The notes below the pieces were generated by a model, which saw nothing but the letters and a program-made list of their open reading frames with translations, had not been told where the DNA came from and did not search any database. Position numbers and translations under genes: made by a program. From NCBI GenBank assembly GCA_032027145.1, contig JAVSMP010000001.1, positions 584,903-648,902 on the forward strand: a stretch of DNA of 64,000 nucleotides, written 5' to 3'. This DNA is from Ignavibacterium sp. (lineage in GTDB: Bacteria; Bacteroidota; Ignavibacteria; Ignavibacteriales; Ignavibacteriaceae). Shown one piece after another: positions 14,441-15,577 of this stretch; position 1 is the stretch's first letter; every line of letters begins with the position of its first letter.

Positions 14441-14476
14441 TTTTTTAAAACAAAAAAGGCTGCCAATAAGGCAGCC
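14441..14476 (-). terminator. Rho-independent terminator of the pilin-like gene
   Basis: GGCTGCC-AATAA-GGCAGCC hairpin (14458-14476); on the minus-strand transcript it is followed by TTTTTTGTTTTAAAAAA (RC of 14441-14457). Confidence 0.7.
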
Positions 14477-14525
14477 CGGAATACAATTATTATTGTATTT
14501 GTAATGTCAATAGAGCTAACTACTA

Positions 14526-14936
14526 CTATTGAACCACTTTTGAATAAATTTGAGTTGGTGTAACTGTTGTTGCAACAGTCCATTCGTATGATGCATCTTG
14601 TGGTGTTGCTATAAAAACTATCTGAGAATCAGTAGGAGTAGGATCTGCCCATATTGCATCTGATGAAGTTTTTAAGTTAGTAGGAAGACCATTCCAATAG
14701 GTGGTAAAAGAAGTAGCATTAGGATCCGATGGTACAAAACTATTACCACCACCGCCGAGCGCAGTTGGTTTTTTGTAATACTGCTGTGCCAAAGCACCAA
14801 TGTTTGTGCCTTGTGCTACTATAGAATCCTGAGTTGATGATTCAGCGTTAGCATTGAACAAGTTAATACCTACTACTATAGCAATACCAACTATGATAAC
14901 GCCAAGAACGATTAAGAGAAGTTGTTGTTGACCCAT
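14526..14936 (-). CDS. Small secreted/pilin-like protein with N-terminal hydrophobic helix and S/T-rich C-terminal half (non-canonical; not a class-III G-F-x-x-x-E prepilin)
   Basis: 136 aa. MGQQQ followed by a 22-residue hydrophobic segment (LLLIVLGVIIVGIAIVVGINLF), then a T/S/Q/P-rich domain. Perfect AGGAGG SD 5 nt upstream of the ATG, which is unusual in this window. Own terminator and a 640-bp AT-rich leader; sits at the edge of the type IV pilus locus. Confidence 0.7.
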   Translation of the reverse strand: MGQQQLLLIVLGVIIVGIAIVVGINLFNANAESSTQDSIVAQGTNIGALAQQYYKKPTALGGGGNSFVPSDPNATSFTTYWNGLPTNLKTSSDAIWADPTPTDSQIVFIATPQDASYEWTVATTVTPTQIYSKVVQ

Positions 14937-15577
14937 TTGAGCCTCCTAAGTTATTGATGAATTTATTTAGTTAATTTTCTAAAAGAACAATTTTCAAACT
15001 TGTTCTTGTCTATTCATTATTTGTGCCAAGCCAATTGCCGGTATTTTATAAAAACAGCAAGAAGAATTCTCATAAATTTCAACGCTATTATCCCTTTTTT
15101 CATTTGATTTGCATATCAACTGGATTTATTGATGACATTGTAATCAGGGAAGAAATTGCACCAGTAATAATTACATAAAATTTTACGGCAGATTTTACTC
15201 TAACGGTAATGTTTACCGAAATAATGCGGCATATTTGAGAATACTACTGCTTTTTTCTGTATTAGACGACAAAATCAGTTAAAATTTATAAATTTCTTAA
15301 AATTGCAGGTAATAGTTACAGGTAATATTTTCAAAAAGATAAAGAATTTTATAAGTAAAGATTTCTGAAAAATTGTTTATAATTATTCTAAATAGTATCA
15401 AAATCAAAATAAACAGAGCGTAGGATAATCAGTATAAGGCAGGCAGCTTGATGTTATTCGCTTATTGATTTTCTAATAATCTTCAAGCAGTCAGTAAGTA
15501 TTTTGCTTCATTCAAGAATAGATATCCATTATTCACTTAAAAAAGGAGTTGAGTAATCTTGGATTTTCAGGTAAAAT

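Follow-up and report, generated by a model that had tools for sequence, protein, structure and literature searches.

Four core components characterize type IV filaments: an assembly ATPase, a platform protein, a prepilin peptidase and a pilin that has a class III leader. Glu5 is regarded as essential for pilin assembly. To our knowledge, every described type IV pilin is made with a class III leader, that is, a charged leader with Gly(-1) as its last residue, then a hydrophobic residue, usually Phe, at +1 and Glu at +5. Many archaeal type IV pilins and archaellins lack Glu5, and the EppA substrates of Methanococcus have Gln at +1. Here we analyze a 64,000-nucleotide (nt) stretch of the genome of Ignavibacterium sp. 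(assembly GCA_032027145.1, contig JAVSMP010000001.1, positions 584,903 to 648,902; hereafter, the window), which encodes a type IV pilus machine and, beside it, a 136-amino acid (aa) protein that starts with MGQQQ. This protein is probably the major pilin of the adjoining type IVa-like machine and would belong to a non-canonical class.

Compared with the type IVa major pilins (PilA/PilE of Pseudomonas, Neisseria and Myxococcus, and PilA4 of Thermus thermophilus), the protein family defined by the MGQQQ start lacks the class III leader, Phe+1, Glu+5 and the disulfide; the window protein begins with MGQQQLLL and matches neither the N_methyl profile PF07963 nor TIGR02532. No prepilin peptidase gene was found at the locus in 84 genomes with the MGQQQ family. 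Archaeal pilins and archaellins processed by PibD, FlaK or EppA have a basic residue in the leader, ahead of the Gly/Ala cleavage site, and depend on a dedicated A24 peptidase; if cut after Gly2, members of the MGQQQ family would start with Gln, like the EppA substrates, but the machine described here is bacterial and resembles that of type IVa pili (T4aP), with PilT, PilN, PilO and a secretin. The family also differs from GspG, which is defined by PF08334 and a canonical leader: there is no Pfam match, and a phmmer search with Escherichia coli GspG reached family members only at E values of 0.4-0.75. The Tad/Flp pilins (PF04964), with about 50-60 aa in the mature form and a G/XXXXEY motif, differ as well, given that the protein has 136 aa with a globular domain, lacks the motif and has no Pfam match.

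The gene (14526..14936, minus strand) encodes a product identical to MDT3695203.1, annotated as hypothetical protein ROY99_02355 of an Ignavibacterium sp. metagenome-assembled genome (MAG). The MGQQQ start is followed by a hydrophobic stretch of 22 residues, L6-F27, with a mean Kyte-Doolittle value of 3.0, and T, S, Q and P (16, 11, 11 and 8 residues, respectively) are abundant in the remainder, which contains no Cys. A Shine-Dalgarno (SD) sequence AGGAGG (14942..14947, minus strand) is located 5 nt upstream of the ATG. An in-frame TAG at 14946-14948 overlaps this SD, three codons upstream of the ATG, and therefore a longer N-terminus is impossible. The full AGGAGG was found in 2 of the 39 open reading frames (ORFs) of the window and in none of the pilus machine genes, and 27 of the 39 have no SD core at all; thus, this ORF has the strongest SD site near the pilus genes. 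An intrinsic terminator (14447..14477, minus strand), detected with a terminator scan and RNAfold, starts 48 nt past the stop codon and comprises an 8-bp stem with six GC pairs, a 5-nt loop and a T-run; the stem GGGCTGCC/GGCAGCCT spans 14477..14457 and is followed by TTTTTGTTTT, with a folding free energy of -16.2 kcal/mol (RNAfold). A preliminary description of this DNA, made from the sequence alone, had listed the 136-aa ORF with its hydrophobic segment and T/S/Q/P-rich domain, an SD absent from neighboring genes and a clean rho-independent terminator, and all of these features hold.

No Pfam profile matched the protein at E≤10, and NCBIfam gave no relevant match. At E≤0.01, 6,036 homologues were detected, nearly all of them unnamed and, among the matches listed, 126-143 aa long. 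A profile search of 1.84 billion representative sequences returned 1,592 clusters at 50% identity, 759 of these at E≤1e-10. Almost all of these matches start at residue 1 of the target, and many span only residues 1-72, after which unrelated C-terminal domains follow. Species-representative genomes contain at least 482 copies of the family, with hosts in Ignavibacteriaceae, Melioribacteraceae (including MAGs of Melioribacter roseus and Ignavibacterium album), Candidatus Kryptoniota, KSB1 and Rhodothermales. The MGQQQ family is not described in any paper that our literature searches returned, and we found no family model or solved structure for it. In the pipelines of the Joint Genome Institute (JGI), several members are labeled PilE, PulG or TadG.

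The leader was analyzed in 137 family genes from 81 loci, the window gene included. An in-frame stop codon is located 0-17 codons (median 4) upstream of the M-G-Q-Q-Q start, and therefore these proteins have no classical leader, with at most Met-Gly in its place. The sequence AGGAG(G) precedes 83 of the 137 genes. Residue conservation was computed on 141 family representatives: G2 and Q5 are present in all 141, Q4 in 140 and Q3 in 131, and G12, G17 and G23 are conserved as well. Mean column identity is 0.85 over residues 1-24 and 0.49 over residues 33-56, with 0.64 in the KKP..GGGG loop and 0.33 over residues 67-136. At the sequence level, a hydrophobic N-terminus that is invariant, combined with a C-terminal half that varies, is a hallmark of type IV pilins; from a Sec signal peptide or passive membrane anchor, the opposite pattern would be expected.

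This pattern bears on the possibility that signal peptidase I removes the hydrophobic N-terminus, as a Sec signal peptide, by a cut after Ala29-Asn30-Ala31, and that the remaining part of about 105 aa is an abundant soluble protein, periplasmic or secreted. An A-x-A-like motif indeed follows the hydrophobic stretch, and position 31 is A or S in 130 of the 141 representatives. However, the n-region carries no positive charge, the h-region extends over 22 residues instead of 7-15, conservation across phyla peaks in residues 1-24 (0.85 versus 0.33), position 29 is Asp in 16 of the 141 members, and the helix in the AlphaFold2 model (see below) runs uninterrupted across the putative cleavage site. 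Because of the conservation and composition of the N-terminus, such a cut is unlikely, and we consider this explanation highly improbable. The unrelated secreted protein that the preliminary description had offered as its alternative has likewise become the less likely reading, the hydrophobic N-terminus being the most conserved part, opposite to a Sec signal peptide.

All genes of the pilus machine are located on the minus strand. The PilC/GspF-type platform protein (11042..12418) matches Pfam T2SSF and NCBIfam GspF/PilC. The PilB-type assembly ATPase (8869..10662) matches T2SSE at E=8e-105, with type_IV_pilB as the best NCBIfam model (439 bits). The PilT-type retraction ATPase (7506..8732) matches the NCBIfam model pilT_fam (TIGR01420) at E=1.4e-94 with 317.1 bits, the cut-off being 319.1. 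Next comes a 515-aa PilM-PilN-like fusion (5955..7502) that consists of a cytoplasmic domain, one membrane helix and a periplasmic domain. For its PilN part, a profile of 19 orthologues matches Myxococcus PilN (3jc8) at E=5.6e-7 over residues 334-480, and the presence of a PilM part is suggested by topology. The 295-aa product of 5071..5958 is PilO-like in the topology of its translation and has an extra C-terminal domain; the sole match of its profile, a weak one (E=0.065), is Myxococcus PilO (3jc8). The 412-aa PilQ-like secretin (3830..5068) matches Pfam Secretin at E=7e-28 and NCBIfam PilQ best, and a single-domain response regulator (3458..3820; Pfam Response_reg), which keeps its place in most loci, closes the conserved operon. 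Pfam and NCBIfam thereby bear out the PilB, PilC, PilT and PilQ assignments made previously from the letters of the sequence.

Gene linkage was examined with the window proteins as queries on 84 loci. In 75 of these, the family gene is followed by a PilC gene in the same orientation, at a median distance of 232 nt. Among the 58 loci with at least 9.5 kb of downstream sequence, 52 contain pilC, pilB, pilT and the PilMN-like and PilO-like genes, and the conserved set usually continues with the secretin and then the response regulator. Hence, the genetic association with an assembly ATPase, a platform protein and a secretin by which type IV pilin genes are recognized is present. Loci from several phyla carry one to three tandem copies of the family directly upstream of pilC-pilB-pilT-pilMN-pilO-pilQ. 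Such paralogues, with the same MGQQQ and hydrophobic N-terminus, which the preliminary description had considered telling, thus exist in many genomes, while a profile search of the window detected this single copy only. The pilC-adjacent copy has an ATG and AGGAG(G); the additional copies often have TTG or GTG as the start codon and no SD. This arrangement resembles the pattern of major and minor pilins, with the SD-less extra copies as would be expected of minor pilins. The pilin-type conservation and the operon placement in 75 of the 84 loci together support the proposal of a non-canonical pilin that would be processed unlike those of types IVa and IVb.

A richer version of the MGQQQ-pilin system is found in a KSB1 MAG (JAPDQD010000007.1, 5359-10423), where three paralogues are interleaved with genes for a GAF-sigma54 activator and a Ser/Thr kinase, and four extra small genes without a Pfam match are located between pilB and pilT.

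The same gene neighborhood could be read in favor of a pseudopilin, that is, a subunit not of a surface pilus but of a short piston in the periplasm, by which folded proteins would be driven through the secretin in the manner of type II secretion. Pilins and pseudopilins are not separable by fold and synteny; moreover, the secretin is short (412 aa), two family members are named PulG by JGI, and a T4aP-derived machine of Bacteroidetes has been reported to act in secretion (PMC6668835; PMC5553014). However, a full-length PilT-family retraction ATPase is conserved in the operon, whereas classical type II secretion systems have none, and the variable C-terminal half suggests an exposed surface. 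The 'type II secretion system' of Cytophaga hutchinsonii (CHU_3191-3202) is comparable in that its machine, from the FCB group, clusters with T4aP in phylogenies and has divergent PilMNO-like components without Pfam matches (PMC5553014, PMC6668835), but its cluster differs in encoding a canonical GspG (PF08334), minor pseudopilins with classical N-termini and an A24 peptidase, with no PilT listed (PMC5553014). On balance, we consider a pseudopilin unlikely, and the reading as a major pilin is retained.

The spacer upstream of the pilin-like gene is 641 nt long (14937-15577), with a GC content of 27.5% compared to 33.6% for the window. It contains a sigma54-type -24/-12 element, TGGCACAAATAATGA (15014..15028, minus strand), a putative promoter 92 nt upstream of the ATG with a predicted transcription start near 15002. 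This site is the single match to TGGCAC-N6-TG in the 64 kb, and the TGGCAC block is invariant in an alignment of upstream regions from six genomes. Across the family, TGGCAC-N5-NTG occurs within 250 nt upstream of 43 of 133 genes, against 0.006 expected, and the relaxed form TGGCA[CT]-N5-NTG, searched over 300 nt upstream, gave 48 occurrences, of which 28 are intergenic and 20 lie within an upstream paralogue. Copies from Kryptoniota carry the full sigma54 consensus, TGGCAC-N5-TTGC. Further upstream, four GTAA-N3-TTAC palindromes (15164..15581, no strand assigned; at 15164, 15206, 15309 and 15571), positioned 230-640 nt 5' of the start codon, are candidate activator-binding sites. The window contains seven such palindromes, against 1.26 expected; besides the four in the pilin spacer, one, at 8842, lies between pilB and pilT. 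The aligned upstream regions of relatives share the TTAC..GTAA core. A sigma54 activator gene is present within 10 kb of the pilin-like gene in only four loci, and in the KSB1 locus the activator is encoded between the family paralogues.

A sigma54-type promoter with upstream activator sites is known for pilA of Pseudomonas and Myxococcus, and we lean slightly towards the view that such an arrangement drives the pilin-like gene as well. Of the 640-bp AT-rich upstream leader in the preliminary description, the spacer and its low GC content stand, but a transcribed leader of this length is improbable: the sigma54-type element is located 92 nt upstream of the ATG, and therefore a 5' untranslated region of about 65 nt, not a 640-nt leader, is predicted. 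The 640-bp region is probably regulatory, activator-binding-like DNA more than a transcribed leader.

An inverted repeat, AGAACAA-N9-TTGTTCT followed by TTTT (14984-15006, minus strand), overlaps the predicted transcription start of the pilin-like gene. In more distant relatives, a stem is kept at this place with a different sequence, and the repeat could be an operator or a 5' stabilizing hairpin. An Rfam scan of window positions 12400-18300 gave no match.

The AlphaFold2 model of the 136-aa protein, built with a 33-sequence alignment, reached a predicted local distance difference test score of 88.8 and a predicted template modeling score of 0.70. It consists of a continuous helix over residues 3-55, a loop with two short helices, and four strands. 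The predicted structure accordingly shows the pilin fold, with an N-terminal helix of about 50 residues, hydrophobic in its first half, against a four-stranded antiparallel sheet. In the fold comparison with individual pilins, the figures were 9.5 for PilV, 8.0 for Thermus PilA4 (107 residues aligned), 8.0 for PilX, 7.9 for PilE, and 7.8 each for the Shewanella pilin and ComP.

Several points weigh against the identification as a pilin. The pilin-like fold is supported by the AlphaFold2 helix and four-stranded sheet, but Foldseek against the PDB gave no significant match and placed no pilin near the top, a discordant result, and both structures are predictions. Comparison by hhalign with eight pilins and pseudopilins of E. 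coli (GspG-J, PpdA-D) gave a probability of 5.7%, and in profile searches of the PDB, pilins were matched at non-significant E values of 0.39-4. The -12 part of the proposed sigma54 promoter is off consensus, with TGA or TGT in place of TGC, and in 20 two-copy loci the sigma54-type motif falls inside the ORF of the upstream paralogue. The search for an A24 peptidase rests on a single E. coli query, and the negative results for canonical pilins and PilD cover 64 kb of a genome of about 3.7 Mb.

The near-threshold profile matches in the PDB are almost all type IV pilins (a Geobacter pilin, Thermus PilA5 and PilE1), and 4 of 10 distant members show a sub-threshold match to PF16732 (ComP_DUS); together with the JGI names, these weak hints all point to pilins. 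In the ungapped, non-significant PDB alignments, family residue n stands opposite mature pilin residue n-3, a register that places Gly2 on Gly(-1), Gly17 on Gly14, Asn25 on Pro22 and Phe27 on Phe24, and puts Gln at +1 and Leu at +5; we take it as a lead only. A reliable register with Phe1 and Glu5 is not claimable, given that the three weak alignments (PDB profiles and hhalign) disagree.

Canonical prepilins were sought with the motif G-[FMILVYAS]-[STA]-[LIVM]-[LIVMP]-E, which is absent from the window ORFs of at least 40 aa, in agreement with the earlier remark that no ORF of the window has a class III signature, and was not found in the six-frame ORFs of the window or of the 84 loci either. 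With E. coli GspO as the query, no A24 peptidase was detected in the window or within 10 kb of the family gene in the 84 loci, and none is listed in the Pfam-annotated flanks. The 295-aa operon protein was considered as a hidden peptidase and rejected, as it has a single membrane helix and matches PilO. The loci of MSH pili likewise lack a prepilin peptidase gene of their own, but MSH pilins keep a normal leader and the peptidase is encoded elsewhere, whereas in the MGQQQ family the leader itself is missing (PMC6668835).

In a third alternative, the 136-aa protein would be a membrane-anchored, non-polymerizing accessory of the machine, and the true pilins would be canonical and encoded elsewhere. 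The DNA inspected here is the window, and a canonical, Geobacter-like PilA has been reported in one Ignavibacteriales MAG (PMC7399161), which also counts against the identification as a pilin. Conversely, the predicted pilin fold, the invariant helix, the tandem paralogues of major-like and minor-like type, the strongest SD of the locus and the position of pilA in the operon all speak against an accessory. Furthermore, the genome paper on M. roseus reported pilB, pilC, pilT and pilQ, and neither pilA nor pilD (PMC3534657), and in two M. roseus MAGs (L034 and L084) a family gene precedes pilC. On the evidence of these sequences, the MGQQQ family fills the pilA gap of M. roseus. We regard an accessory role as quite unlikely.

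If the 136-aa protein is the major pilin, transcription of its gene alone would begin at the sigma54-type promoter, about 65 nt before the ATG, and stop at the gene's own terminator, and translation would use the strongest ribosome-binding site of the locus. The N-terminal helix, 22 residues long and invariant, would anchor the product in the inner membrane and leave the variable globular domain on the periplasmic side. PilB as the ATPase and PilC as the platform, both kept in place by PilMN and PilO, would then lift the subunits into a helical fiber, in which the packed N-terminal helices form the core and the variable domains may be exposed at the surface; the fiber would leave through the PilQ secretin and be retracted by PilT.

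Maturation could follow either of two routes. Gly at position 2 is an optimal context for methionine aminopeptidase, which might cut before the invariant Gly2 and leave GQQQ, with no prepilin peptidase involved; alternatively, only the Met-Gly dipeptide would be removed, leaving QQQ. The strict invariance of Gly2 would likewise agree with the Gly(-1) rule of prepilin peptidases. The protein probably represents a class of type IV pilins without a class III leader and without Glu5, with Gln3-Gln4-Gln5 at the place of Phe1 and Glu5. A tentative but realistic possibility is that Ignavibacteriota, Kryptoniota, KSB1 and some Rhodothermales assemble a retractile type IV pilus without any prepilin peptidase, from a pilin that is made mature and loses only Met1, and that the invariant Gly-Gln-Gln-Gln replaces N-methyl-Phe1 and Glu5 in membrane extraction and fiber packing. 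If so, one of the four supposedly universal components of type IV filaments would be removed. The MGQQQ family would also account for the genome papers that report pilus machines "without pilA and pilD" in this phylum. With about 1,600 clusters at 50% identity, the family is plentiful among environmental bacteria, and annotators would gain a missing family, along with a natural test of the need for the leader, N-methylation and Glu5. I. album and M. roseus are cultured hosts, which makes the question directly testable.

In the window, the pilin-like gene and pilC are separated by a 2.1-kb gap that contains a lineage-specific array of 74-bp repeats and a HigB/HigA-like gene pair. The 74-bp unit is made up of a pair of related hairpins (8-bp stem and 12-nt loop in each) and is present in 19 copies, all in one orientation and confined to intergenic spacers of the pilus locus: arrays at 13559-14413 (about 11.6 copies) and 17511-17945 (about 5.8 copies), and single copies at 10827, 10912 and 12719. 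The unit has no Rfam match and is absent from all 87 loci compared, including the closest relatives among them, with about 85% protein identity. It looks like a recently expanded element of the repetitive extragenic palindrome or miniature inverted-repeat transposable element type. A CRISPR array was considered and rejected, as unique spacers are lacking and the sequences in the place of 'spacers' are conserved, too. The gene pair (12787-13532, minus strand) encodes a Gp49/HigB-like toxin of 138 aa and an HTH_3 antitoxin of 108 aa. Close relatives instead carry a GIY-YIG gene, located between pilC and pilB, and the operon spacers therefore seem to collect mobile cargo.

Directly upstream of the pilin-like gene, three genes (15578-17371, 18180-19715 and 19768-21336) encode multi-pass membrane proteins of the PMT/GT-C glycosyltransferase type, the first of which has C-terminal TPR repeats and is syntenic in close relatives only. 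Asp37-Ser38-Ile39 of the pilin-like protein, invariant within close relatives, fits the O-glycosylation motif of Bacteroidetes, D-(S/T)-(A/I/L/V/M/T); glycosylation of the pilin is possible.

Elsewhere in the window, two genes for pyrimidine-nucleoside phosphorylases were identified (23720-25024 and 31109-32893), with a Band_7/SPFH domain fused to the N-terminus of the second. In a profile scan, antisense segments of both genes scored identically, which suggests a near-identical duplicated stretch with the copies about 7.9 kb apart. Two large proteins (25303-29097 and 35949-37703) have type IX secretion C-terminal sorting domains, and the gene of the latter carries the only other AGGAGG ribosome-binding site in the window.

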